A stretch of DNA of 62,337 nt, counting the filler. It is 9 parts of 9 records of this genome, joined end to end, with 100 filler letters (N's around TTAATTAATTAA, not from the genome) between each part and the next. Parts side by side here need not be neighbours in the genome. Positions count along the whole stretch, not along the records: positions 45,084 to 56,529 come from SRR31147125_18023; 8 more parts are not named here. One strand, written 5' to 3'. Positions within the stretch are counted from its first letter, which is position 1. Every line of letters begins with the position of its first letter. Positions 31,662-56,529 of this stretch are shown one piece after another. Under the pieces are notes generated by a model, which made no database searches, was not told where the DNA came from, and saw nothing but the letters and a program-made list of their open reading frames with translations. Made by a program: the position numbers and the translations under genes.

Positions 31662-32482
31662 ATGGCACTGTCCGTCGTGGATTTATACAGCAAGGTGCTG
31701 CCGCGAACCAATTGCGGTGAGTGCGGTTACCCCACGTGCATGGCCTTTGCCGGCATGGTGGTCTCTAAAAAACTGCCCCTCAAAGGCTGTCCTTACCTTT
31801 CACCTGAAACGCTGGAACGTTGCCAACCGGAACTTGACGCCCAGCACGCCGCCGGCAAATGGACCCAGCGCGACATGTCCGCCGACGCCCTTGCCTGGGC
31901 AAAGGAACGGGCCGCCTCCATGGAATTGGTGGACCTGCCCGAACGGATCGGCGGCGAGCTGACCCGTGTGGATGGCGAACCGGTTCTGGTGCTGCCCTAT
32001 TTCAACGCCACCATCCACATCCATCGCGACCACATTCAGCGGCCTGACGGCAGTGAGCTGGGACGATGGGAGCAGGTCTTCATCTTCAACCACATGGCCC
32101 AGGGCGGTTCGAAGATGCCCACCGGACACTGGAAAGCTCTTCAGGAGATCCCCAATACCGTTTCCAAAATCAAGTCGATGCAGGCGCACGTGGAAGCGCC
32201 GCTGCGCGAACGTTTGCCGGGCATCCGGATCGACTGGCGGCTGCGGCCGGACGCATTGGCGGGAAGGATATCACGGCTGAAGTCGCTTCTGCCGATCTCG
32301 CCATTCGCTTCAACCCCTTGCCGCGAATACCGGTCATGTTGCTGTTCTGGGATGCGGATGCGGAAGGCGGATTCGAAGCAGAGGTCAAACTGTCGTTCGA
32401 CGAGACGATCACCGAGCACCTGGACATCGAATCCATTCTCTTTCTCAGCGAAACGCTGGCCGGGTTGCTGAAAAGCAATTGA
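31662..32482 (+). CDS. Fe-S cluster domain plus DUF3786 protein (frameshift near 32215)
   Basis: LPRTNCGECGYPTCMAFA...CPYL FeS domain; LPRIPVMLLFWDAD...FEAEVKLSFDETITEHLDIESI in the shifted frame. Confidence 0.85.
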
Positions 32483-32812
32483 GGTGCCAAAGTACCTTTT
32501 GAAGTGGCATTCCTTGGGAAACGGGTCTTCCCTCAGCGAATACCAAGGCCTGTACCAACGGTTGATTGACGATCTGCCCGACGGGTGGGTCAACACTGCC
32601 GACCACCAGGCAACCAGCAGGAAACACACCATTCTAAAGCCACCCCCAATCCCCCACGGCCAGGCAAAAGGAAAGATTCCAATCCAGCCGGATATCAAGT
32701 TGACATATAGGAGGGCCTTCAGGATACTTAAGTATGTGCGGACTTTTCCGATAAAGATCTAAGAGGCGCATTTGCAGAGTAAACATGCACGGCTGATTGA
32801 TCTGAGGTATGA

Positions 32813-43776: not shown

Positions 43777-44983
43777 ATGAAATTGATGTTGAAGGAGATA
43801 TCAGCGAAAGTTGAGACGCTGACTGATGAGCTTTTTGAGTCTATAGCTCAGCAGATAACATTTAATAGCGTTGAGAGTGACCCAAAACCAAATATGCCTT
43901 TTGGTGTTGAAGTTGACAAGGCATTACAACATGTTTTGAAAGTAGCAAAGGATATGGGTTTTACGACTTATAATCATAACGGATATGTTGGAACGATAGA
44001 ATGGGGTGATGGTGATGAGATATTAGGCATATTGTCGCATATTGACATTGTTCCAGCAGGAGATTTAGATTCATGGGATTCACCACCTTTTGTTATGACT
44101 GAAAGGAATGGATATTTATATGGTAGAGGAATTGCTGATGATAAAGGGCCTTTGATGTCGGTTTTATATGGTATGTATGCTTTGAAGCAAACAGGCTATC
44201 TCCCAAACAAAAAGGTAAAAATCATTGTTGGTACAAATGAAGAAACAGGTTGGGGAGGTATCAAGTATTATAAGGAAAGATTTGATGAGCCAAATATAAG
44301 CTTTTCTCCAGACGGTATGTTTACTGTTGTGAATAGAGAAAAAGGTATATGTTCAGCGAGTTTTGAGAAAAAAGTAGTTTTACAAAGTATTGAGATAAAT
44401 GGGGGAGAAGCTAAAAATCTTGTTCCAGCTAAAGCCAAAGCAATTTTGGCGGATAGTTTAAAATCATCAGTGCTGAAAATAGATAATTCAAAACGTATAG
44501 AAGATACATCGATAGAAATTATAGAAAAAGATAATAGCATAGAAATTAACGCTGTTGGGAAAAAATGCACCATCACATTCTCCGGCTTCTGGTGCTTCGG
44601 CAATTATTGCATTATTAAAAGTATTGAAAGATTGTGAGAATATTAATGAAGCATTAAGAGAAGATTTTAAGAATCTATATAATGCTTTTGAGCAGTATGA
44701 TGGGCAAGCACTTGGGATAAAGTGCAGCGATGAGATTTCGGGAAGCTTGACACATAATCTTGGTATTATCAGCCTAGTAGACGATAAGTTAACTATAGAG
44801 ATTGATATAAGATGTCCAGTTACAAAATCGATACAAGAGTTATCTGATAAAGTACTTATTTGGATGCAAGAAAATGGGTTTAGGTTAGTTGAAAAAATGA
44901 TAAAAAACCCGTTATACGTACCAGAAGATTATGAGCTTATTAAAGATTTATCCGAAGTGTATGAACAAGTTACAGGAGAAAAA
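43777..44983 (+). CDS. M20 Sapep/PepV-family dipeptidase (frameshift in A-run near 44560; 3'-partial)
   Basis: LSHIDIVPAG, YGRGIADDKGP, GTNEETGW, FSPDG; continues GKNAPSHSP in ORF 44555+. Confidence 0.9.
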
Positions 44984-45083
44984 NNNNNNNNNNNNNNNNN
45001 NNNNNNNNNNNNNNNNNNNNNNNNNNNTTAATTAATTAANNNNNNNNNNNNNNNNNNNNNNNNNNNNNNNNNNNNNNNNNNNN
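44984..45083. other. Artificial contig spacer
   Basis: N44-TTAATTAATTAA-N44. Confidence 0.99.
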
Positions 45084-45089
45084 AAAAAA

Positions 45090-45251
45090 CCGGCATGCCC
45101 GTGGTTTACTTTTCGCCAATCCATTGCCGCTGTTTCTAATCAAGCGGGTTTTCTCAGCTCCTTGGGGGACCTGATGTGACCTGATGCTTTTTCGATTCAG
45201 TGGTTATGAATGGGAAGACATGGCTTCTGGCGCTAAACCCGGGCATGCCGG
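45090..45251. ncRNA. Candidate structured RNA / long imperfect fold-back element (about 160 nt)
   Basis: CCGGCATGCCCG/CGGGCATGCCGG perfect 12-bp closing stem with nested pairings GGTTTA/TAAACC, CGCCA/TGGCG, CCATT/AATGG, CCGCTG/CAGTGG, TCAG/CTGA. Confidence 0.5.
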
Positions 45252-45368
45252 AGGAGTAATTATCATTTGTTTCTTCTGTTATTATTATAACAAATTGTTG
45301 AAATGTTATTCTGGTTGAACGCTTTTCATTGATTCGTCCACCGGTACAAGCAATGAATTGGAGGAAAA

Positions 45369-45869
45369 TCACTCCCGAACGTAAGTGTCAACGTCAGTTT
45401 CATGAACCATCTTCATTAGTCGGGTGTATTCCGATTCAATGACTTCATAATGATTGTGAGTTGACTCCGCGTTCATCTTATAGATTGCTTTTGCTGTAGG
45501 GTCGATAACCCTTTCACACATCTGTCTGAGGTGTTCCTCAAGTTCCTGTTCCCTTTTCATGGCCAGTTCCAGCGCATGACGTTCATCAAAGCCGAGTTCC
45601 TGAATCATTTCTTCCAGATCCTTGATCCATTCCAACCCTTTGTCAGGAGGAGTATCTATGAAATTATCAAAGCTGCCGATATCTCCTCCCCTGTAAATGT
45701 CAAAAAAGGATCTGGCATGCTCTCTTTCCTCTGAGGCCAAAAGTTCAAATACCCTTCTAACTTCAGTATCCTTTGCCTTCTCGGCAGCAATCCGGTAGAA
45801 GTCCATGGCGTTTTTTTCCGTATGGAGTGAGTTATTGATTGCTTTGTTCAAATATTCATTGCCGGACAT
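45369..45869 (-). CDS. Ferritin-like / rubrerythrin-domain di-iron protein
   Basis: EKNAMDFY, EEREH, second half-repeat ALELAMKREQE...HY; SD AGGAG. Confidence 0.88.
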   Translation of the reverse strand: MSGNEYLNKAINNSLHTEKNAMDFYRIAAEKAKDTEVRRVFELLASEEREHARSFFDIYRGGDIGSFDNFIDTPPDKGLEWIKDLEEMIQELGFDERHALELAMKREQELEEHLRQMCERVIDPTAKAIYKMNAESTHNHYEVIESEYTRLMKMVHETDVDTYVRE

Positions 45870-46229
45870 TTGCAACTCCTTCCTGAAAAATAAAACTGCA
45901 AGATGAAAAGGGCGTAATCAGTAACCCCTTTTAGAAATCTGTTTTCCTCTAATTTTACAGGATTATGAAGGATTTTCACCAATGTCGATGAAATAAATTT
46001 GATGCCATAAGTCCTGGATCTGCTGAAGTGAAATTTGTTTTTACAAAATCTTATCAATTTTGAATTTTTGAAAAAGACGGAGTTTTGTTCTTGATAATGA
46101 GATTAGGATTATACAGGTCAAAAAGTGAGCAGCGGTTGTGACAAAAAATGTCACTTTTGGAGATAAACTAAAGAACTCATTTAAACAGGGAGTACCGGGG
46201 ATGTTTTGGCTTTGAACTCAAGACGTGGC

Positions 46230-46259
46230 AAAAAAAAGGCCCCGTTAACTAACGAGGCC
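46230..46259 (-). terminator. Rho-independent terminator (minus strand)
   Basis: GGCCTCGTT-AGTT-AACGGGGCC-TTTTTTTT on the minus strand, with no recognisable protein gene immediately upstream. Confidence 0.88.
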
Positions 46260-46471
46260 AAAAATGAGGAGGAGGAAGATGAGGTTTTTGCTTTTCCGTA
46301 TGCATGCTGGTCCTTTTGAATGACTCACTGGTTTTTTAAAGCTGGTCTCTGAAAAACGCTTTAGGCTTCCCACTCAAGGTGGGCCTGCTCACCACGTATT
46401 TACGCGAGATATGCTTGAACTGTAATGTTAGTGAGTAACTTTTCAAAAAGACCATCATGCAAGTTGGTTAT
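46230..46471 (-). ncRNA. Candidate sigma54-dependent small RNA (about 240 nt)
   Basis: Bounded by a -24/-12 promoter and an intrinsic terminator; contains a 160-nt fold-back (46301-46461) and a CTTCCTCCTCCTCA tract. Confidence 0.65.
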
Positions 46472-46481
46472 CTGGTTAATA

Positions 46482-46497
46482 TGCTAAGTATGTGCCA
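46482..46497 (-). promoter_or_regulatory. Sigma54 (-24/-12) promoter
   Basis: TGGCAC-ATACT-TAGCA with exact GG-N10-GC spacing. Confidence 0.75.
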
Positions 46498-46996
46498 AGA
46501 CGATAAAAAAATAGAAAAATTGATTTGAAGGTTTTTAAGCCAGGTTGCTTTGGGACCGGAGAGTTATTTACGGCACAAAAATATTTATCAAGGAAGGCTG
46601 TGGTGACTTTAAAAAGTCAAACTTGTGTCGGAATTGAGTGCCTTTGACAGTGTTTCAAAATTTCATAAAAGAAGTCCCCTTTTTTCAAATACATTGTTCG
46701 AAATAGCCTTCATTTTTCTTCGGAATTTATTGAACCAACTGTCATACTCATGACTTTTTTTGTGGGCGATTAATCCATGATCTGATTTTTGGGTTGTTTG
46801 TGGATGCCATAGCCAATTTTCTACTTCCTTCCTCCATGGCTTGTTGTTAAAAGATCCAATGTTAAAATTTATCTCGGATCCTTAATTTAGAAAAAAAATT
46901 GATGGTTTGTTTTACAGAGGATTATTCACCTTCCAGTTGCGAGCCTCTGGATTGATTCCAGCGACCAATATTTCAGCACGTTGGAGAGGTTTTCCC

Positions 46997-47560
46997 ATGT
47001 CGAAGTCTTACAGAGATGCTCTAGCTTTTCACGGCCACAACTGTCCTGGCCTGGCCATGGGTTACCGTATGGCAACTGCGGCTCTGGACTTTCTGCAAGA
47101 ACTTCACGCGGTAGATGAAGAAATCGTCGCGATTACAGAAAACGATGCTTGCGGGGTTGATTCCCTTCAGTGTGTCACCGGATGTACTTTCGGAAAAGGC
47201 AATCTGATTTTCCGGGATTATGGCAAACATACATATACTATTTTTTCCCGTGCGACGGGCAGGGGTGTTCGTGTGCATTTTCATGGGCAGGGTATACCGG
47301 AAAAGATTCGGGAGGACCGGGACGCTCTTTTGGACTGGATTCTTAATGCACCTGTGGAAAAAATCCTTTCTCTGCGGGAGGTCGAAACGGAGCCTCCTGA
47401 AAAGGCCAGAATTCGTAGTTCTCTCACTTGTGAGTTTTGTGGAGAAAAGGTCATGGAAAATCGCACCCGGGTAGTGAATGGTAAGACGTCCTGTATCCCC
47501 TGTACTTTTGACGTCCCGGTGCACTGGTCCGGTTTCTGCTCGTCCAAGCGGACCTCCTGA
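46997..47560 (+). CDS. fmdE: FmdE-family protein with C-terminal zinc finger
   Basis: FHGHNCPGLAMG, ENDACGVD, GCTFGKGNL, CEFCGE...CIPC. Confidence 0.9.
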   Translation: MSKSYRDALAFHGHNCPGLAMGYRMATAALDFLQELHAVDEEIVAITENDACGVDSLQCVTGCTFGKGNLIFRDYGKHTYTIFSRATGRGVRVHFHGQGIPEKIREDRDALLDWILNAPVEKILSLREVETEPPEKARIRSSLTCEFCGEKVMENRTRVVNGKTSCIPCTFDVPVHWSGFCSSKRTS

Positions 47561-47643
47561 AGGGGAGCCGATCCGGTGGATGGTTTCGCGGCGTTTGTTA
47601 TTGCGGCAAATGTTGTCGAACGTTTCCCAAAAAAGGATAGATT

Positions 47644-48309
47644 ATGGAGTCAGGTGAAATAACTGTATTCATATTTGATGTCAATGGGGTATTGATTGAC
47701 TCCAATGCCGCCAATGCGGAGGCTATGGGAAAAGCTTTTACGGCTGACCCCTTGCTGCAACGCAGGGTTGCAGAACATTATCTCCAGTTGACGGGAATTG
47801 ATCGTGGCAGCAAAATTCGCAACATTCAGGAAAACCTGATCAGGCGCCCGTTTGCTGAAAACGAGTTTGACCAGCGTTGGGAACGCTTCAAAAAGCTCTC
47901 CCGGGAAACGATGCTGAAAGCCCCCTTGGGGGCCGGGGCTAAAGAGGTCTTAACACAATTGGGGAACATGGGGAGCATCCGGGTCGCTTTGTCCAATACC
48001 CCACCTGACGAGTTGGAAGAAATCCTGAAGGGGCATGGCCTGGATCAATATCTTGAAATTATCCGTGGTGGCGGGAACTGGCCCAAATCCGAATCTTTGA
48101 TTCGTTTACTGGAGGAGTTTCAATTCAGGCCTGAAAATTGTTTTTTCATGGCGGATGGTATGGGCGATCTCATGGCGGCCAGGGCGGCTGGTGTCCCCTT
48201 TGGTGCCATAGATCCCGATACCGGGGAGTTTGACGGCGAAAGTGGGTTCGAAGGCCCTTACCAAAACCTGGCGGAATGGGGACGAAAGGAGCTGGGCTTG
48301 GATATCTGA
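47644..48309 (+). CDS. HAD-superfamily hydrolase
   Basis: FDVNGVLIDSN motif I, LSN motif II, K, DGMGD motif IV. Confidence 0.85.
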   Translation: MESGEITVFIFDVNGVLIDSNAANAEAMGKAFTADPLLQRRVAEHYLQLTGIDRGSKIRNIQENLIRRPFAENEFDQRWERFKKLSRETMLKAPLGAGAKEVLTQLGNMGSIRVALSNTPPDELEEILKGHGLDQYLEIIRGGGNWPKSESLIRLLEEFQFRPENCFFMADGMGDLMAARAAGVPFGAIDPDTGEFDGESGFEGPYQNLAEWGRKELGLDI

Positions 48310-48359
48310 AGGAACTGATGGTCGGCCAATCTGTACTATGGCTCTCTTTTGAGTGGTAT

Positions 48360-48833
48360 TCAGGTTTCCGGGCTTTGACAGACATCGACTTCGGCACCTT
48401 TGGTGATTTCTTGAAGTTGGGCAAAGGTGATCGGTACGGCTGAATGGTCATTTCCAGCGGCAGCATAGACCCTGGGGAAGCGCCGCATGGACGAGTCAAG
48501 CAGGACCTTCAGCTCGTCCGGCAGAAGAAACGGACAAACACCACCGGGAACGTATCCGGTGTGGCATTCCACTTCGTTCGGCCCCGGGAGCCGGACTTTG
48601 CCGGTTAACTGAGCAGCTCGTTTAAGTTTTGATGTGTTGATTTTGACATCGCCACAGGAAACAACAACAATGGGTGTTTTTCCAATTAAAAAAAGAATGG
48701 TCTTGGCAATTTCAGCAACTTCGCAGCCCACGGCCAAAGCAGCCTTCTGCGACGTGGGGGTCGGATCCGTAAATTCCCAGACTTCAATTTTCCTGGCAAC
48801 GAGATAGGATTTGATTTCCTCAATAGAAGGCAT
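48360..48833 (-). CDS. YbaK/EbsC-family aminoacyl-tRNA deacylase-like protein
   Basis: IAKTILF, TGYVPGGVCPF, VYAAAG. Confidence 0.9.
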   Translation of the reverse strand: MPSIEEIKSYLVARKIEVWEFTDPTPTSQKAALAVGCEVAEIAKTILFLIGKTPIVVVSCGDVKINTSKLKRAAQLTGKVRLPGPNEVECHTGYVPGGVCPFLLPDELKVLLDSSMRRFPRVYAAAGNDHSAVPITFAQLQEITKGAEVDVCQSPET

Positions 48834-49065
48834 TTTTTCCTGACGGTTATCAATTAGGTGGTGGCGCCTGTTTCAAATACCACAAATGAGATCAATATGC
48901 CACTGGAACCGGGGTGGACCAGTTAACCACTTTTCAGTAAAAGTTTAAGGTCTTCTTTCCCATTATTTTTTGCATATAGGAGGAGGCCTGTAGTATAAAA
49001 GGGACAAAAAAAGTAGGATGTCAGATCTCAACCCGTAGGGGTGGAAATAAAAAAGGAGAAAATAA

Positions 49066-49494
49066 ATGAAAGAAGCAAAAAAGGGCGATACTGTAAAATT
49101 GGAGTATACGGGAAAATACGAAGATGATTCGATCTTTGACAGTTCTGCCGACCATGACAAACCTCTTGAGTTTGTTCTGGGTGAGAAGACGATGATCCCG
49201 GCTTTTGAAAGGGCTGTTTATGGAATGAAGGAAGGTGAGACCAAGAATATTGTGGTTCATCCGGATGAAGGCTATGGACCTTACCGCCAGGAGTTGATTG
49301 TTACTCTGAATCGGAAGGATCTGCCTCCGGAAATGGAACTTAAAGCCGATCAATTTCTTGAGTGGCAGCAGCCTGATGGCAAGACCGGTCTCGCTAAAAT
49401 TCTGCAGGTTACCGATGAACAGGTCAAAGTTGATACCAACCATCCGATGGCCGGTAAAAAACTTTTTGAGTTGAAAGTGCTGACAATAGAATAA
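49066..49494 (+). CDS. FKBP-type peptidyl-prolyl isomerase (SlyD/FkpB-like)
   Basis: GDTVKLEYTG, FDSS, MIPAFE, VDTNHPMAGK. Confidence 0.92.
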   Translation: MKEAKKGDTVKLEYTGKYEDDSIFDSSADHDKPLEFVLGEKTMIPAFERAVYGMKEGETKNIVVHPDEGYGPYRQELIVTLNRKDLPPEMELKADQFLEWQQPDGKTGLAKILQVTDEQVKVDTNHPMAGKKLFELKVLTIE

Positions 49495-49522
49495 TGCCCG
49501 ATGGTTGGCGCTGGAAAATGAT

Positions 49523-49556
49523 GCGGGGAATCCTAGTCGGATATCCCCGCTTTTTT
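49523..49556 (+). terminator. Rho-independent terminator
   Basis: GCGGGGA...TCCCCGC-TTTTTT. Confidence 0.75.
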
Positions 49557-49613
49557 GTTTTTGCTTTGGCATGAGCTGAAAAAAGGACAGGACGATGTTA
49601 CTAGGATGCGGGA

Positions 49614-50411
49614 TTAAGGGTCATTTCTTTCAGTTTTACCCCAGAGTTTTAATTGCCGGGTGATGAAAGTGATGACCTCTTCGTGTTCTTTCTGACCATT
49701 ACCTTGGACGACCAGAGGCTCCCCGAACTCGAAAAAGACCTTTTTCCGTGGGTCAATTTTTCCAAAATCTTTGAAACGGCCCGCGCCGTTGCCCCAAGCG
49801 TCGGATTTGATAGCAACGGGAATCACGGGACAACCGGATTTTTTGGCTAATTTAATCCCGATACTGTTGAATTGCCCGGGATCAAATTCTGTTGTCCGCG
49901 TAGTCTGGGGGAATATAACCACGGAGAGACCATGGTCCAACTTTTGTTTTCCACCCTGAAGTGTGGTCTTCAGGTCTTCTCTTGGATTGGTTCTGGAAAC
50001 GCATATGGGGTCGCGGGAAATCATAACGTGCTTGAACAGAGGATAAGTCACCAGGTCTTTTTTTATCACAAAAGTATGGCGTTTGAATGGAAGAATAATG
50101 CCGGGCAGGAGAAAAGTTTCCAGGGTGCTCATGTGGTTTCCGACAAAAATGCAGGGTCCTTCCAGTGAAAGAACGTTTTTAAAACCGTTGATGCTGATCT
50201 TGACGCCCAAATCTTCCAGTGCACTCAAGGTTTCCCTGCTGCTTCCTGCCCAATCTGCATCTGAATAGGCCCCCTTTTTTGCTTTTTGCGCAGCCCTGAA
50301 AACAATAGAAAACAAGCGGAGATAGAAAAAAAAGCCGGGAAACATTTTAAATAGGAAATTTATTTTCCTTATTGACGTTTGGTAAAAACCTTTTTCCAGA
50401 TGAAGGTCCAT
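49614..50411 (-). CDS. Lysophospholipid / 1-acyl-sn-glycerol-3-phosphate acyltransferase family protein
   Basis: GNHMSTLE, FVIKKDL, VIFPQTTR, VIPVAI. Confidence 0.9.
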   Translation of the reverse strand: MDLHLEKGFYQTSIRKINFLFKMFPGFFFYLRLFSIVFRAAQKAKKGAYSDADWAGSSRETLSALEDLGVKISINGFKNVLSLEGPCIFVGNHMSTLETFLLPGIILPFKRHTFVIKKDLVTYPLFKHVMISRDPICVSRTNPREDLKTTLQGGKQKLDHGLSVVIFPQTTRTTEFDPGQFNSIGIKLAKKSGCPVIPVAIKSDAWGNGAGRFKDFGKIDPRKKVFFEFGEPLVVQGNGQKEHEEVITFITRQLKLWGKTERNDP

Positions 50412-50587
50412 TGAAACTTGTCTCCAGGTTTTTTGCGTGTCACATGGGGAAATGCATTAAAAATGAACGGGGGTGGAACATATCATCAAAAAGCTTCCGG
50501 GAAATTCTAAAATTTTTCCGGAAAAACTTAAATACATTATTTTCCCTGAAAGCAGGAAAAGAGCCTTTTCTGAGATGAAGGGTCTGC

Positions 50588-51124
50588 TCATTTTGGTTTC
50601 AAGGAATCAAGCATAAACAGTACGGCCGCCTTTACCTCGGCATCCGACAAATTCGGGTTGCCACCCTTGGGTGGCATGACCCCTTTGCTTCCCTGGAAAC
50701 CTTGCAAGGCGTTTTTGACCAGATTTTCCTCTCCTTTGGCGATGCGGCTGGTCCATTCTTGCTTTGCGCCAAGCAATGGGGCTCCGGCAACGCCATGCTC
50801 GTGGCAAAGAGCACAGCTTTGTAGATAGACTTTTTCGCCTAAAAACAGATCGTTCGTATTTTTTGATTCCAGAATTGCCGTGGGCAAGTCTGCCCCTGCA
50901 GGGGAGGCAAGCGGCGATTCTTTTTTTGCCGTAGTGGGTGGGGTGGGGCGAGTCTGTCCGAGAATTTTTTCCACCTGCTTTTGCGGGGTATCAGAGGCCA
51001 AGCTGTACCGCCCTCTGGTGTTTAAATCTTCTTTTATCTCCTGGCTGACATTTTTGTTGTCACAGCCTGAAGAAAGAAATACCAAGAAAAAAAGAATAAC
51101 CAGAATTTGGGTAAGATATTTCAT
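50588..51124 (-). CDS. Lipoprotein cytochrome c5-type monoheme cytochrome
   Basis: Lipobox LSSGC; CALCH; GVAGAP; MPPKGG axial Met. Confidence 0.92.
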   Translation of the reverse strand: MKYLTQILVILFFLVFLSSGCDNKNVSQEIKEDLNTRGRYSLASDTPQKQVEKILGQTRPTPPTTAKKESPLASPAGADLPTAILESKNTNDLFLGEKVYLQSCALCHEHGVAGAPLLGAKQEWTSRIAKGEENLVKNALQGFQGSKGVMPPKGGNPNLSDAEVKAAVLFMLDSLKPK

Positions 51125-51453
51125 GCTCCCTCTCGGAAAAACTACTCGTATCTATAGTAATTATCTCAGCCGTATAATGAAGAAAATGTAAAGGCCCAAT
51201 AAGTCTGGAACATTTTGTTAAATAACATTTTCTTGTTTGGCAGGATTTTTGAACATAAAAATGATAGCAAAGAAATCATTATCCCAAAAAATGCAAAACC
51301 TTCGAGTTGATTTTTTCTAGTAGATTATTGACTATATGAAAATGACTCTTTTGCCACCAGAAAAAGCAATATTTAAAATCTGAAGTCTCAGAGCGTAAGC
51401 GATGAAGTGAATTTTTATAGCCAAATGAGTCAAATTTCTCAGAATATAAAGGA

Positions 51454-53062
51454 TTGATTTTGAAGTCGCAACTCCAAGAAAAATCACAAGAACCGGCTCT
51501 TGATAATTCTTTGCCAGACGCTGACAGCCTTGAGTCCAGTGCATTGAGTCATATCCAAAATGTTCTGGACAGTTTTGGTGAATTGCCCTCTCCCCCTGCT
51601 ATTGCTGTTAGAATTCTGGATGCGGTTAAGGATGACAAAGAATGCTTTCGCTCGTTGGCCCAGGTGATTTCATCCGACCCTGCCCTGACGGCAAAAATGC
51701 TGAAAGTGGCGAATTCCTCCATTTATGGAGTGCCCAGGCGGGTTGATACCATTGAAATGGCGCTGACCGTTTTGGGTATCAGAGCCCTGAAAAATATTGC
51801 TCTTTCTTTTGTTATTGCCGGTGAAATTCAGAATGCCTGTAGCGGTGCTTTTGATTTTAAGAAGTTCTGGAAAGGCGCTGTTACTTCGGCAGTGGCGGCT
51901 GAAATGTATTCTTCCTTGTTGGGGGAAAAAAATGATGACACTTTTGTCAGCGCACTCCTGCAGGACATTGGCTATCTAGTCATGTTTCTGACTCGGCCGG
52001 AGGATTATATCAGAGTAATGAGCCAAGGAAAAGGTTCCGAACTTAACCGAATTGAATATGAAAGGGAAATTTTCGGTTTTGATCACCAGGAGCTTGGGGC
52101 CGCCATGTTAAAAGATTGGGGGTTGCCTGAAACCATTTATATGCCGATCCTTTATCATCATATTTCTGAGCAGTGTCCTGATGGCTATCAAGATCGTGCT
52201 TTTGTTTTATTTGCATCTCATTTGCTTTCTTCCGTCTATCAGAATCATAACAGTGGGGAAAAAGCTCAACAGGTTCACAACCTGTTAAAGGGAAAAAGCA
52301 ACTTGCTGCCGATGAAGTTGAAAAGCTTATCGACTCAGTGGCAGAAAATACTACGGAAATTTTTTCAACCTTTGAATTGGGCAACGAGAAAATCAAACCA
52401 TATTCTCAGCTGCTTCAGGAGGCAAACCAGGAACTTGGAAAGTTGAATCTTTCCTATGAACAATTGATTTTGGATTTAAAAGGAGCTAAAGACGAAGCGG
52501 AAAATCTGGCGACCCAGCTGATGGACGCCAATCAGACACTCAATTCGTTGGCTTTTAATGATTCTTTGACCGGTAGTTACAATCATCGTTATTTCCTGGA
52601 TATGCTGGCAAATGAACTTGAGCGTTCTCTCAGATATTCCTGTCATTTGTCCCTGATGTTTTTCGATGTCGACCATTTTAAAAATATCAATGATTCTTAT
52701 GGTCATCTGGCGGGGGATTTTTTATTGAAGACCCTTGTAAACAGGGTTGCAAAAATAATCCGAAATTCAGACATATTGGCGCGCTTTGGCGGGGATGAGT
52801 TCGCCGTTATTATGCCGGAGACCAATCCCAGTGGTCTGAAGGTTTTTCTGAGCGGGTCAGAAGAGGCATTGAACAGATGGCCGTTGGCGTAGAAGGCCAC
52901 ACCGTTAATGTCACCGTCAGCATTGGGGGTACGACTGTTAACCCGGGCGTTTCAGTTGGCGATCCGCGTCTTTTGATCCAAGCCGCTGACCAGGCTGTTT
53001 ATCAATCTAAAGAGCGTGGCAGAAATAAATTCACTTTCCTTCCCTTTGAAGAAGTTTGCTGA
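51454..53062 (+). CDS. HDOD-GGDEF diguanylate cyclase (frameshifts near 52295 and 52850)
   Basis: LPSPP, DPALTAKMLKVANSS, FGFDHQELG (HDOD); DVDHFKNINDSYGH, RFGGDEF, VTVSIG, KERGRN. Confidence 0.88.
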
Positions 53063-53505
53063 GCGTGCTCACTACTTTCCAGAGGGGAAAAATTTTCTGC
53101 TATGAATAAACGTACAACTCAGGCGTGCTAGGATATTTTCGCCAATTCCCTTCTTTTCACTTTCACCAGAACTCCCCTTTTTCCTTTTGTAGAATCTTAA
53201 TTATTGATAGAATTTCGGATGTTTAAAAGTAGTCCTTCCTGGTCGCTTCTGGTGCCGGCGGGAATGAAAAAATTTCGTAATTTTCTGCTGAATGAAAAAT
53301 AACGGCCAGATGTTGCCATCCTCCGAAATTCTTGTAAATTTAATGGAACGTGGAGAAGAATTATTTTTCCGGTTGTTTTAAATGCCAGAATGGGGTATTT
53401 AAAGGCGGGAAATTTTATCTTGGGTTTTAGTTAATATTAATGATATAGACTATTTTTTGGGTCGTCTAATTTAGTACCTGTCAGGAAAAGAAGGGAGTTA
53501 TTGTA

Positions 53506-54567
53506 ATGGCTGATCTTTCGACCAAGTATATGGGGCTTGAGCTTTCAAGTCCTGTTGTTGTGGGGAGTAGCAGTCTGGCCAGCTCGGTTGAGGGAGTAAA
53601 AAAACTCGAAGATGCCGGGGCCGCAGCTGTCGTATTGAAGTCTTTGTTCGAAGAGCAGATTTTTGCCGAAACGGAAGAAATGGGTGAACACAGCCATACG
53701 CTTTACGATTCCGAAGCGGCGGAATTTGTCGAGGCCTATGGACGGGAATTCGGGCCTAGAAATTATCTCAAACTGATTAAGGACACCAAAAAAGCCTGTT
53801 CCATTCCCATTATCGCCAGTTTGAATTGCTTCTCCCAAAAATGGTGGGTAAATTACGCCAAAAAAATTGAAGCTGCCGGAGCTGATGCCCTGGAACTGAA
53901 CATTGGTGTTATGCCCAGCAATCCGAAGCTGACGTCGGAAGAGGTGGAAGCTCTCTATCTTGATGTTGTCAAGGACATCAAAAAGGAAATTAAAATTCCT
54001 GTCTCCTTGAAGATTGGCCCCTATTTCAGCTCTTTTGCCAACCTGGCTGTTACATTAAGCCGGGGCAGAGTTGAACATCATGACTTTGTCGTTGGCTGGT
54101 GCGGCACCACCCCTGGGCCTTCCGATAATAAAAAGAGGTGGAATGGCGTGGACGCTCTTGTGCTTTTCAACCGTTACTACCAGCTGGATATTGACATTGA
54201 AAAGATGGAGCTTGTTGCCGGCAATCCTTACAGTACTTCGGATGAAATCCATGAATCCATGCGCTGGATCAGCCTGCTTTCCGGCAGGGTTGATTGCGAT
54301 CTGGCTGCAACCACGGGTATTCATACCGGAGCTGATGCCATTAAGCAGATTCTGGCTGGTGCTAATGTGGTTCAGCTGTGTTCGACTCTTTACCAGCAGG
54401 GCTTGGGGCAGATCAAAAGTGTCCGTCAGGAAATCGAGGACTATATGGGTGCTCATGGATTTAATTCGATTGATGATTTTCGTGGTAAGCTGAGTCAGAA
54501 GAAGAGTGAATTCCCCACAGCCCATGAGAGACTCCAATATATCAAATTGTTTGTTGGAATCGAGTAA
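53506..54567 (+). CDS. Dihydroorotate dehydrogenase-like flavoprotein
   Basis: DLSTKYMGLELSSPV, VLKSLFEEQI, IIASLN, ADALELN, LVLFNRYYQLDID. Confidence 0.88.
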   Translation: MADLSTKYMGLELSSPVVVGSSSLASSVEGVKKLEDAGAAAVVLKSLFEEQIFAETEEMGEHSHTLYDSEAAEFVEAYGREFGPRNYLKLIKDTKKACSIPIIASLNCFSQKWWVNYAKKIEAAGADALELNIGVMPSNPKLTSEEVEALYLDVVKDIKKEIKIPVSLKIGPYFSSFANLAVTLSRGRVEHHDFVVGWCGTTPGPSDNKKRWNGVDALVLFNRYYQLDIDIEKMELVAGNPYSTSDEIHESMRWISLLSGRVDCDLAATTGIHTGADAIKQILAGANVVQLCSTLYQQGLGQIKSVRQEIEDYMGAHGFNSIDDFRGKLSQKKSEFPTAHERLQYIKLFVGIE

Positions 54568-54602
54568 AGAGATCTTCATTAGCTCTGTTTTTGAGAAAAT
54601 TC

Positions 54603-54638
54603 AAAACACCCCGCCTGTTTCAGGCGGGGTGTTTTTTT
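54603..54638 (+). terminator. Rho-independent terminator
   Basis: AAAACACCCCGCCTG-TTT-CAGGCGGGGTGTTTTTTT. Confidence 0.9.
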
Positions 54639-54804
54639 GAAGAAATTGCAAATCGATTTGCGAAACTGGTTTAAGTCTGGGTAAGCTTTACCGGATTAAA
54701 AATTTGCTAAAATTTATTTTAGGGTTGAAATTTGTAAGCAATTATATAAATATATTGAAAATTCAATATAGGGCTTCATATATACAGAAAGGAAGGTGTC
54801 GATA

Positions 54805-56489
54805 ATGGGAGATGGAAATCAAGTCGTTGTGATTGGTGGCGTTGCAGCAGGTATGAAGACGGCGTGCCGGATACTCCGTTTGAATCCTGCGGCCAAAGTG
54901 ACCGTGTTGGAGAAAAACAAAGAAGTTTCCTATGGCGCATGTTCTCTGCCTTATTATATTGAGGGGCATTTTGAAGATGTGGAAGATGTCCGTAAAACAC
55001 CTGTAGGTGTTTTGCGAGATGAGAAATTTTTGCCAACTGCAAAGGTTTTGAGGTCCGGACTTTGACGGAGGCTCTGGATATCGATCGTGGACGCAAAAAG
55101 GTTAAGGTGAGGAACCTTGAAAGCGGGCAGGAAGAGGAAATCCAGTACGACAAGCTGGTTCTGGCTACAGGCAATCAGCCTATTCTGCCCCCGGTCCCGG
55201 GTATAGATCTGGACGGTGTCTATCCCCTGAAAACCATGGCGGATGCTGAAAATATTCTTTCCCGTTCCAAATCTTGTAAAAAAGCGGTCATTGTGGGTGG
55301 TGGGCTTATCGGCCTTGAAGTCGGCGAAGCCTTGGTTCACAACGGGTTGCAGGTGTCTTTAATCGAAATGAAGAATCAGGTCTTGTGCAATGCCCTTGAT
55401 GATGGAATGGCGGGACTGGTCCATCGTGAGTTGAAAAAAAACGGGGTAAACCTCTGTCTTTCTCAGGCGCTTGAAAGCATTGAAGGGCAGGATGGAAAGG
55501 TGAGCGGTGTGAAAACTCCGCAGGGTACTTTAGATTGCGAAATGGTAGTGGTATCGATTGGGGTCAGACCGGTAGTTTCTCTGGCCCAGAAAGCCGGCCT
55601 GAAACTGGGCAAGACCGGAGCAATTGCCGTGGATGAGCACCTTCGTACCTCCGACCCTGACATTTACGGTGCCGGGGATTGTGTGGAGTCTAAACATCTC
55701 TTGAGTGGTGAATGTTTATACGTTCCTCTCGGCTCTACAGCCAATAAACAGGGGCGGGTGGTTGCTAACAATATCTGTGGCAAAGAGGAAACGTTTCCTG
55801 GAATCCTCAGCACGTTGATTGTCAAGGTTTTCAGCCAGAACGTGGCACGCACCGGACTGCTTCCCGAACAGGCCCTGGCTGCGGGTTTTGAGCCGGTGAG
55901 CATGCTCGCCCCTTCACCTGACAAAGTTCACAATTATCCGGACTGCAAACCGATCGATATCAAGCTTATTGCTGACAAGAAGAGCCGGAAGCTTATCGGA
56001 GCTCAGATTGTCGGTCCCGGGGATGTGGCCAAACGTATTGATACGATTATTGCCGGGATTTCTCTCGGTGTTACTGTTGATCAACTGGCCCAGTTGGACC
56101 TGGCTTATGCACCGCCTTTTTCCTCCGCCATGGATCCCCTCCATATTGCCGCCAATGCTCTGCGCAACAAGTTGGATGGCATTGTGGATAGCCTTGATCC
56201 GCGAGAGTTGTATGCTAAACAGCAAAATGGGGACGATTTTGTCTTTTTGGATGTCCGAAGTCCCAAGGAGTTTGAGGAGGTCCGGATCCCCGGCGGGACA
56301 CTCATCCCCTTGGGGGCTTTACGCGGCCGCTTGGATGAGCTTCCCAAAGAAAAGGAAATCATACCATTCTGTAAGATCAGCCTGAGAGGATACGAAGCCG
56401 CCTTGATACTCAAAGCTGCAGGGTTTGAAAAGGTGCGTTACATGGAAGGTGGAGTACTGGGCTGGCCATTTCAGCTTGAAACCAGTTAA
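54805..56489 (+). CDS. CoA-disulfide/persulfide reductase-like FAD-dependent oxidoreductase with C-terminal rhodanese domain (frameshift in T-run near 55030)
   Basis: GGVAAG, SYGACSLPY redox Cys, GGGLIGLE, YAPPFS, rhodanese LDVRSPKEF...FCKISLRG. Confidence 0.92.
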
Positions 56490-56529
56490 TTCCGTACGGG
56501 GTATCTGAAACAGGTGGCTGCGCCAAAAA

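Follow-up and report, generated by a model that had tools for sequence, protein, structure and literature searches.

A divergent 6S-like RNA with a sigma54-type promoter and an anti-Shine-Dalgarno-like tail in Desulfuromonadales

We describe an RNA unit on the minus strand of a stretch of 62,337 nucleotides (nt), referred to below as the window, which consists of nine joined parts, with positions 45,084-56,529 coming from SRR31147125_18023. Comparison with related genomes identifies the unit as a real, conserved small-RNA gene, predicted to specify a structured RNA of about 240 nt. Within one lineage, a sigma54-type motif, a 6S-like rod, a CU-rich tail and a terminator occur in conserved linkage, and the rod, as judged from its sequence and predicted fold, is a divergent 6S paralogue by descent, which lies outside Rfam family RF00013 by the curated threshold of that family. 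We consider it probable, with ample room for doubt, that the RNA is a 6S-like decoy for RNA polymerase, under the control of sigma54 and an activator, to which an anti-Shine-Dalgarno seed module is fused. A first-pass annotation of the window had proposed a self-contained, unannotated minus-strand RNA unit, assigned to no known family and possibly acting on the adjacent ferritin-like gene. The RNA unit and its conserved parts are borne out, while the family assignment and the ferritin target are not.

The features of the unit are listed in Table 1. Sigma54 promoters have the consensus TGGCAC-N5-TTGCA, with GG at -24 and GC at -12, and the start site is expected at a fixed distance after the -12 GC. 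At 46497-46482 on the minus strand the window carries TGGCACATACTTAGCA (TGGCAC-ATACT-TAGCA), whose GG and GC are ten bases apart (GG-N10-GC, as first described) and which fits the consensus at 15 of 16 positions. The rod that follows is about 160 nt long (46461-46301). In its outer arms, 46461-46442 and 46320-46301, 19 of 20 positions are paired, by 18 Watson-Crick pairs and one U-G, with one A/G mismatch, and the arms continue as ACTCACT (46436-46430) paired to AGTGAGT (46329-46323). Both the count and the predicted fold agree here with the first-pass annotation. The remaining 70 nt or so form a tail, in which a CU-rich single strand is followed by a separate terminator. The CU tract, CTTCCTCCTCCTCA at 46278-46265, occurs once in the window and has a predicted probability of being unpaired of 0.91, in keeping with its placement outside the stems. 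The terminator, earlier described as GC-rich, has a stem of nine pairs, six of them G-C, and a loop of four, followed by T8 at 46237-46230. Open reading frames (ORFs) inside the unit are of 37, 40 and 42 amino acids (aa), so that none reaches 60 aa, as had been noted. Small ORFs on either strand were considered as genes and rejected, because their start codons are not conserved.

The 242-nt RNA has a minimum free energy (MFE) of -71.1 kcal/mol, compared with -51.3 +/- 4.2 kcal/mol for shuffled sequences (z -4.69), and none of 200 shuffles was as good. The plus strand folds about equally well (z -4.38), and folding energy alone therefore does not choose the strand. We assign the unit to the minus strand because of two other features. 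The U-run of the terminator is found on this strand only, and two G-U pairs, kept in 20/20 (columns 89/121) and 17/20 (columns 85/125) sequences, would be A-C mismatches on the opposite strand.

A model, R1, was built from four sequences of this unit (rod, tail and terminator) and searched in 151 genomes of the order. It gave matches in 135 of them, because it also recognises ordinary 6S genes. The best full-length matches were inspected (24 + 40 + 10 further regions). The tree and the tail counts are based on 85 R1 matches (alignment A6), from which 67 were kept and 18 dropped, the latter being 15 partial matches with fewer than 130 rod bases and three antisense or secondary matches. Regular expressions sorted the 67 into 22 with a sigma54 motif no more than 110 nt upstream, 34 with a sigma70-like hexamer pair, and 11 unclassified. 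The 22 sigma54-type copies consist of the window's unit and 21 copies in 17 Desulfuromonadales genomes. The 62-kb window has one copy. In G001 R1 finds a single match at E <= 0.01, in G002 and G003 it finds two full-length copies apiece, and G111 has three copies. Two of the G111 copies stand in tandem on contig C15 (L082:1061-1312 and L082:1501-1747), about 190 nt apart and each with a sigma54 motif and a terminator, and the third (L109) is on a separate contig.

The exact pattern running from the promoter to the apical 6S block was searched for in 185,579 species, each represented by a single genome. The 14 stretches obtained carry the labels Desulfuromonadales, Geothermobacter or Deltaproteobacteria, and among them is the isolate Geothermobacter hydrogeniphilus HR-1, with a family member at L161. 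A looser pattern added four stretches, one of which is a genuine member (L186, from a Geobacteraceae metagenome-assembled genome). The other three, from Pseudomonadota, Bryobacterales and Terriglobia, were set aside as probable chance matches in unrelated sequence. Within reach of the patterns used, then, the sequence-defined family is confined to the Desulfuromonadales lineage. In a FastTree tree of the 67 rods the sigma54-type copies fall into two neighbouring clusters; since the midpoint rooting is arbitrary and support values were not inspected, we do not claim a single origin of the sigma54 promoter.

In a four-way alignment of the window with L001, L002 and L067, the spacing TTGGCA[CT]-N5-T[AC]GCA is kept and the 14-nt CU tract is invariant, the flanks are divergent, and the terminator is altered by compensatory substitutions. 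RNAalifold, applied to a plain MAFFT alignment of four sequences, predicted 61 pairs, of which 15 are kept through double changes. When the 20 sigma54-type copies were aligned to R1, 90.3% of cells were paired, compared with 35-48% when the partners were slid by one to three columns. Changes on both sides are seen at 49 of the 61 pairs, and none of 500 shuffles reached the observed values. The closing helices are 79-92% paired and all their pairs show double changes, all terminator pairs covary, and the apical helices are 96-99% paired, with the apical 6S motif almost invariant in the 20 sequences (alignment A4). A helix that RNAalifold draws inside the central bubble is paired in 57% of cases across the 20 sequences, and we therefore read this region as open. 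Promoter, CU tract and terminator are all kept in relatives, which is the conservation that the first-pass annotation had called for.

Taken alone, the promoter match in the window is at chance level: for TGGCAC-N5-TTGCA with no more than one mismatch, two matches are seen where 1.3 are expected, and at least two turn up in 35 of 100 shuffles. It carries weight because it is conserved in all 22 homologues. In 20/20 copies the motif YTGGCMY-N5-YNGCH precedes the model start by 22-84 nt, and L089 and L099 bring the total to 22/22. Across 0.93 Mb of retrieved sequence the background rate of the motif, with the promoters themselves counted, does not exceed 0.005 per 100 nt. No sigma54 motif was found upstream of the examined copies that have TTGACA-type promoters. 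The rpoN gene (PF04552) is present in all four tested relatives that carry the RNA. The only other sigma54-like motif in the window is TTGGCACCTCAATTGCT (32474-32490, minus strand), amid overlapping ORFs.

The 300-nt regions upstream of the promoters are enriched in TGTC-N8-GACA palindromes: 15 sites match at seven or more of the eight positions and are spread over 11 of 20 regions, compared with 1.9 +/- 1.3 sites in shuffled sequence. They fit the enhancer-site form TGT-N10-ACA, although the palindrome form does not identify the activator. L093, L095 and L100 have perfect 16-nt palindromes, TGTCGGAATCCCGACA, 56-68 nt upstream of the sigma54 motif, and 35 nt further up there is a second identical palindrome in L100 and a related one in L093. 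These palindromes of the Geothermobacter-type group look, from their sequence and placing, like tandem enhancer sites. The window's own perfect palindrome at 46741-46754, a putative activator site, forms the core of a site that matches the TGTC-N8-GACA class at 7 of 8 positions; it is kept in L078/L001 and is not kept in L002.

At gathering thresholds, Rfam gives no matches in the window. With E-value reporting, the apical part of the rod (46408-46347) matches RF00013 at 36.2 bits (E 5e-6) over model positions 64-126 of 187, with the block GGUGAGCA...GGGAAGCCUAAAG aligned to the consensus. The gathering score of RF00013 is 46.4 bits, and neither the window nor the sigma54-type copies (29-38 bits) reach it. 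Scores of 33-37 bits were obtained for the homologues in G001-G003, and two of these align across model positions 1-187; on 17 loci the model gave seven matches, none of which reaches the cut-off. Other Rfam candidates (PyrR, RF02278, RF00519, RyhB, anti-hemB and several snoRNAs) were far below their thresholds, and we rejected them as look-alikes of the terminator or the CU tract. In the reverse direction, R1, although derived solely from this unit, detects full-length 6S-type genes with sigma70 promoters, a class that scores 48-58 bits on RF00013 and thus lies above its gathering score. The first-pass annotation, which could name no known family, had itself listed a 6S match as a reason to abandon that view, and in the light of both searches the view is not supported. 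Since the gathering score is an operational cut-off, we use the term divergent 6S paralogue for the unit and do not count it among the curated members of RF00013.

The likeness to 6S RNA (SsrS) extends to the layout, a rod of about 160-190 nt with a closing stem, a large open central bubble and an apical stem, and to the apical sequence block GGUGAGCA...GGGAAGCCUNAAG, which is shared with proteobacterial 6S and is near-invariant in 20 copies. The unit differs from 6S RNA in having a sigma54-type instead of a sigma70-type promoter, in its tail of about 70 nt with a separate terminator, and in coexisting with one or two canonical 6S genes. A full-length canonical 6S gene of 80-89 bits lies elsewhere in all three genomes that carry L001, L002 and L067. 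The same is true, at 63-94 bits, of 12/12 further genomes with the sigma54-type RNA, and seven of these 12 have a second 6S above the cut-off (48-58 bits). The sigma54-type unit is thus an extra copy. Both the canonical and the second class have TTGACA/TAnnnT-type promoters, the sigma54-type class is additional to both, and there are up to six RF00013 matches per genome. The canonical class begins with GCTCTCTGCC and the second class has the ends CTGGGATG...CATCCCGG (L174-L180, L162-L173; genomes G005-G146). A further 6S-like class (L125, L144, L183, L184 and L146) shares the apical motif, and neither a sigma54 nor a sigma70 motif can be recognised within 260 nt of it; a GATCCTCC tract precedes the terminator in two of its members, L183 and L184.

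Extra 6S paralogues occur in other bacteria. Legionella 6S2 is one such RNA, and we know of no Bacillus or Legionella 6S paralogue that is driven by sigma54 or has an anti-Shine-Dalgarno tail. Bacillus subtilis has the paralogues 6S-1 and 6S-2 (PMC10578484, PMC4793215). The genomes studied here resemble these cases in having more than one 6S-like RNA, presumably with differing expression conditions, and differ from them in having up to four coexisting sequence classes.

The CU tail is linked to the sigma54-type copies. Defined as a run of at least six pyrimidines with at least four C between rod and terminator, a CU tract is present in 18/22 sigma54-type and in 3/34 sigma70-type copies (Fisher p 3e-8, a value that overstates independence because the sequences are related phylogenetically). 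The tract of the window is also present in L075, and in slightly different form in L108. In the 19 of 20 members with a detected tract, its mean predicted probability of being unpaired is 0.76, compared with 0.40 for whole RNAs. A CCUCC-type motif left exposed ahead of a terminator hairpin and a U-tail is typical of anti-Shine-Dalgarno sRNAs (small RNAs). In one such family, the alphaproteobacterial Cuckoo/RSs0680 (CcsR) sRNAs, a CCUCCUCCC motif lies in the loops of two to four adjacent hairpins (PMC4615179). The two systems are alike in having a conserved CCUCCUCC-type anti-Shine-Dalgarno motif, with no other sequence in the module strongly conserved, and in the action to be expected, namely occlusion of ribosome-binding sites. 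They differ in that the unit has a single tract, CUUCCUCCUCCUC, placed not in hairpin loops but in an unpaired linear linker between the 6S-like rod and the terminator. The unit also belongs to another phylum, and there is no Rfam match between the two.

Control by sigma54 has precedents among small RNAs, in Vibrio Qrr and Myxococcus Pxr. In Desulfovibrio vulgaris, Dv_sRNA2 is described as a target of the response regulator DVU0679, so that sigma54-dependent sRNAs are known in Deltaproteobacteria (PMC3333781). Like these, the unit stands directly behind a -24/-12 promoter, which implies control by an enhancer-binding activator; those RNAs are short base-pairing sRNAs that have no 6S-like rod, and none of them gave an Rfam match here.

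Under the reading that we favour, the sigma54 promoter, unlike the sigma70-type promoters of canonical 6S genes, would lead to transcription only when an enhancer-binding activator fires. The 160-nt rod would most likely dock in the active-site cleft of the RNA polymerase holoenzyme as a mimic of an open promoter and, as 6S RNA does, would restrain housekeeping transcription. The 3' tail has the layout of the seed region of a trans-acting sRNA, namely the exposed CUUCCUCCUCCUC tract, a terminator hairpin and a U-tail, and may pair with GGAGG-type ribosome-binding sites. A stronger form of this proposal is offered tentatively, and we judge it rather improbable: that the RNA is a signal-gated bifunctional global brake, in which the sigma54-activated rod sequesters the housekeeping holoenzyme and the exposed CCUCC tail, mimicking the anti-Shine-Dalgarno of 16S rRNA, simultaneously masks ribosome-binding sites, or in which, more boldly still, the rod has been adapted so as to capture the sigma54 holoenzyme itself. 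If true, one transcript would couple the shutdown of transcription and translation.

Several observations weigh against the decoy reading. The RF00013 score is under the curated gathering score and in the window just the apical third aligns, and the divergence of bubble and closing stem may reflect a loss of 6S function. The 20-sequence alignment was fitted to R1 and is thereby biased toward the structure, leaving the four-sequence MAFFT/RNAalifold result as the independent support. Four of the 22 sigma54-type copies lack a CU tract as defined above, so that the tail is not universal: three (L085, L089 and L099) have no tract at all, and the two CU runs of the fourth (L100) are poor in C. An anti-Shine-Dalgarno tract can pair with almost any ribosome-binding site, so that no specific target can be named. 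The palindrome upstream in the window is a 7/8 match, lies 257 nt upstream and is conserved in just one relative, and no gene for an enhancer-binding protein was found in the neighbourhoods of the copies.

The strongest competitor, which we consider unlikely although it deserves serious attention, is a neo-functionalised base-pairing sRNA, in essence the view of the first-pass annotation. Its 6S-derived rod would be only a stabilising scaffold or a substrate of RNase III/E, and its CU seed and terminator would occlude GGAGG-type Shine-Dalgarno sequences when the sigma54 activator is on. In favour of such an RNA, no part of the tail varies less than the CU tract (identical in the four sequences of alignment A1, where the flanks vary), which is also predicted to be single-stranded and goes closely with the sigma54 promoter. 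The divergence of closing stem and bubble from RF00013 to below threshold is also consistent with it, as are the weak, sub-threshold matches of the tail to RF02278 (25.1 bits) and RF00519 (23.2 bits), which are seed-plus-terminator sRNAs. However, selection on structure acts strongly on the rod as a whole and not just on the tail, and the rod keeps an open bubble and a geometry specific to 6S; an apical 6S motif almost invariant in 20 sequences is needless for a mere scaffold; and three members have the sigma54 promoter and the rod but no CU tract.

We regard as decidedly improbable that the RNA is a decoy specific for the sigma54 holoenzyme, exerting negative feedback on the very holoenzyme that transcribes it. 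Genomes with up to three or more 6S-like classes would have room for sigma-factor specialisation, and it is the present class that goes with sigma54 promoters, but both points are circumstantial. Inspection of alignment A4 reveals no -24/-12-like element beside the bubble, and the apical stem is identical to that of sigma70-type 6S. We know of no 6S-type RNA that has been shown to bind the sigma54 holoenzyme.

The position of the unit, in the same orientation as a rubrerythrin/ferritin-like gene that begins about 360 nt downstream, in an arrangement kept in L001, L002 and L067, could also suggest a cis-acting leader or attenuator that regulates the gene by terminator read-through. This is very improbable, given a strong terminator (nine pairs, U8) followed by promoter-like elements and an operator-like palindrome belonging to the gene, and given that other members precede a convergent DsbD_2 gene or an OmpR-type regulator gene and that the second copies in G002 and G003 are at other loci. 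Nor is a dedicated action on this gene likely, whose Shine-Dalgarno the first-pass annotation had named as an example of a possible target, because the gene lies well beyond the terminator, has promoter elements of its own and adjoins the RNA in just one of three synteny groups; the CU tract is complementary to its GGAAGGAG Shine-Dalgarno over about 5-6 bases, which is no better than for a generic Shine-Dalgarno sequence. Finally, the long inverted arms and overlapping ORFs of 37-42 aa might recall a dispersed repeat, such as a miniature inverted-repeat transposable element, or a small-protein gene, but this can practically be dismissed: instead of many copies at unrelated sites there is one in the window and one or two full-length matches at syntenic places in each close relative, while the ATG at 46458 is replaced in L067/L080 and the plus-strand ATG after a GGAGG run is absent in L067.

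Table 1. Features of the RNA unit and of the DNA on either side of it.
Feature	Position	Strand	Basis or remark
Candidate upstream activator site, perfect palindrome GTCATGAGTATGAC	46741-46754		About 245-255 nt upstream of promoter; unique in window
Second conserved upstream block, TGTC...N16...GACA	46626-46649	minus	Kept in window, L001 and L002 (alignment A5)
Sigma54-type promoter, TTGGCAC-ATACT-TAGCA (-24 GG, -12 GC)	46482-46498	minus	Motif and spacing in 22/22 family members, flanks diverging
Predicted transcription start	46470-46472	minus	About 11-13 nt past the -12 GC, as expected from sigma54 promoter geometry
Closing stem, 5' strand: 20-nt arm 46461-46442, internal loop, ACUCACU 46436-46430	46430-46461	minus	MFE and centroid fold; helices 1-4 covary
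Central bubble, 5' side, 21 nt, starting with conserved YNAAC motif	46409-46429	minus	Helix 5 only 57% paired; alignment A4
Apical stem-loop, GGUGAGCAGGCCC...GGGAAGCCUAAAGCG	46347-46408	minus	Rfam 6S match; helices 6-7 96-99% paired
Central bubble, 3' side, 17 nt	46330-46346	minus	Fold and family alignment
Closing stem, 3' strand: AGUGAGU 46329-46323, 20-nt arm 46320-46301	46301-46329	minus	Fold and covariation
Single-stranded C/U tract CUUCCUCCUCCUCA, anti-Shine-Dalgarno-like	46265-46278	minus	Invariant in alignment A1 (4 sequences)
Intrinsic terminator: stem 46259-46238, U8 46237-46230	46230-46259	minus	9 stem pairs, all with compensatory changes (helix 8)
Palindrome GTGACATTTTTTGTCAC, operator-like	46154-46138	minus	Between RNA terminator and rubrerythrin/ferritin-like gene
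TTGACC 46121-46116, followed directly by extended -10-like TGTATAAT 46115-46108	46121-46108	minus	Upstream of rubrerythrin/ferritin-like gene
Start of rubrerythrin/ferritin-like gene	ATG 45869; Shine-Dalgarno GGAAGGAG 45883-45876	minus	Likely start
Rubrerythrin/ferritin-like gene	45369-45875	minus	Pfam PF02915; same orientation as RNA unit, starts about 360 nt downstream

From the elements in Table 1, the rubrerythrin/ferritin-like gene looks as if it has its own promoter and an operator for a metal or redox repressor. We found 71 Desulfuromonadales-type loci with relatives of this gene, and nhmmer places the RNA upstream of it in just three of them (L001, L002 and L067). Copies of the family fall into three synteny groups: one with a rubrerythrin-like gene downstream, one with a convergent DsbD_2 gene, and one with an OmpR-type regulator gene downstream and an M1 peptidase gene upstream. 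Genes for FmdE-like proteins and a HAD hydrolase also adjoin family copies.

We note that two runs of N around the six-frame stop linker TTAATTAATTAA occupy 44985-45083. The window is a concatenation of contigs, and synteny across this junction is artificial; the DNA that is continuous with the RNA unit begins at 45084 and lies to its right. The ORFs flanking the junction extend into the Ns on either side. Just before it, on the plus strand, the ORFs 43777-44637 and 44555-45031 overlap in different frames, and give the impression of a single peptidase-type gene interrupted by a frameshift.

Our full-text searches of the literature found no sigma54-driven 6S-like RNA, no 6S RNA with an anti-Shine-Dalgarno tail and no Geobacter or Desulfuromonadales 6S paralogue, although an earlier listing in the main 6S surveys is possible. 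A term search of PMC2700814 gave nothing of relevance. The combination of a sigma54-type promoter, a 6S-like rod and an anti-Shine-Dalgarno-like tail, as recognised in sequence, has so far been seen only in Desulfuromonadales. Because every sigma54-type copy scores below threshold, the family is invisible to Rfam-based annotation, and the genomes that carry it, with three to six 6S-like loci each, hold more polymerase-directed RNAs than are annotated.

6S RNA is characteristically an abundant, stable transcript that binds the housekeeping RNA polymerase holoenzyme and templates short product RNAs. In the systems known to date it regulates with growth phase and is transcribed from promoters of the housekeeping or stationary-phase kind. 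Sigma54 control would instead make the sequestration of polymerase depend on a signal read by an enhancer-binding protein. To our knowledge no earlier 6S-type RNA has a base-pairing module, and the fused anti-Shine-Dalgarno tail would be the first. The presence of the RNA in the cultured Geothermobacter hydrogeniphilus HR-1 makes the idea directly testable.

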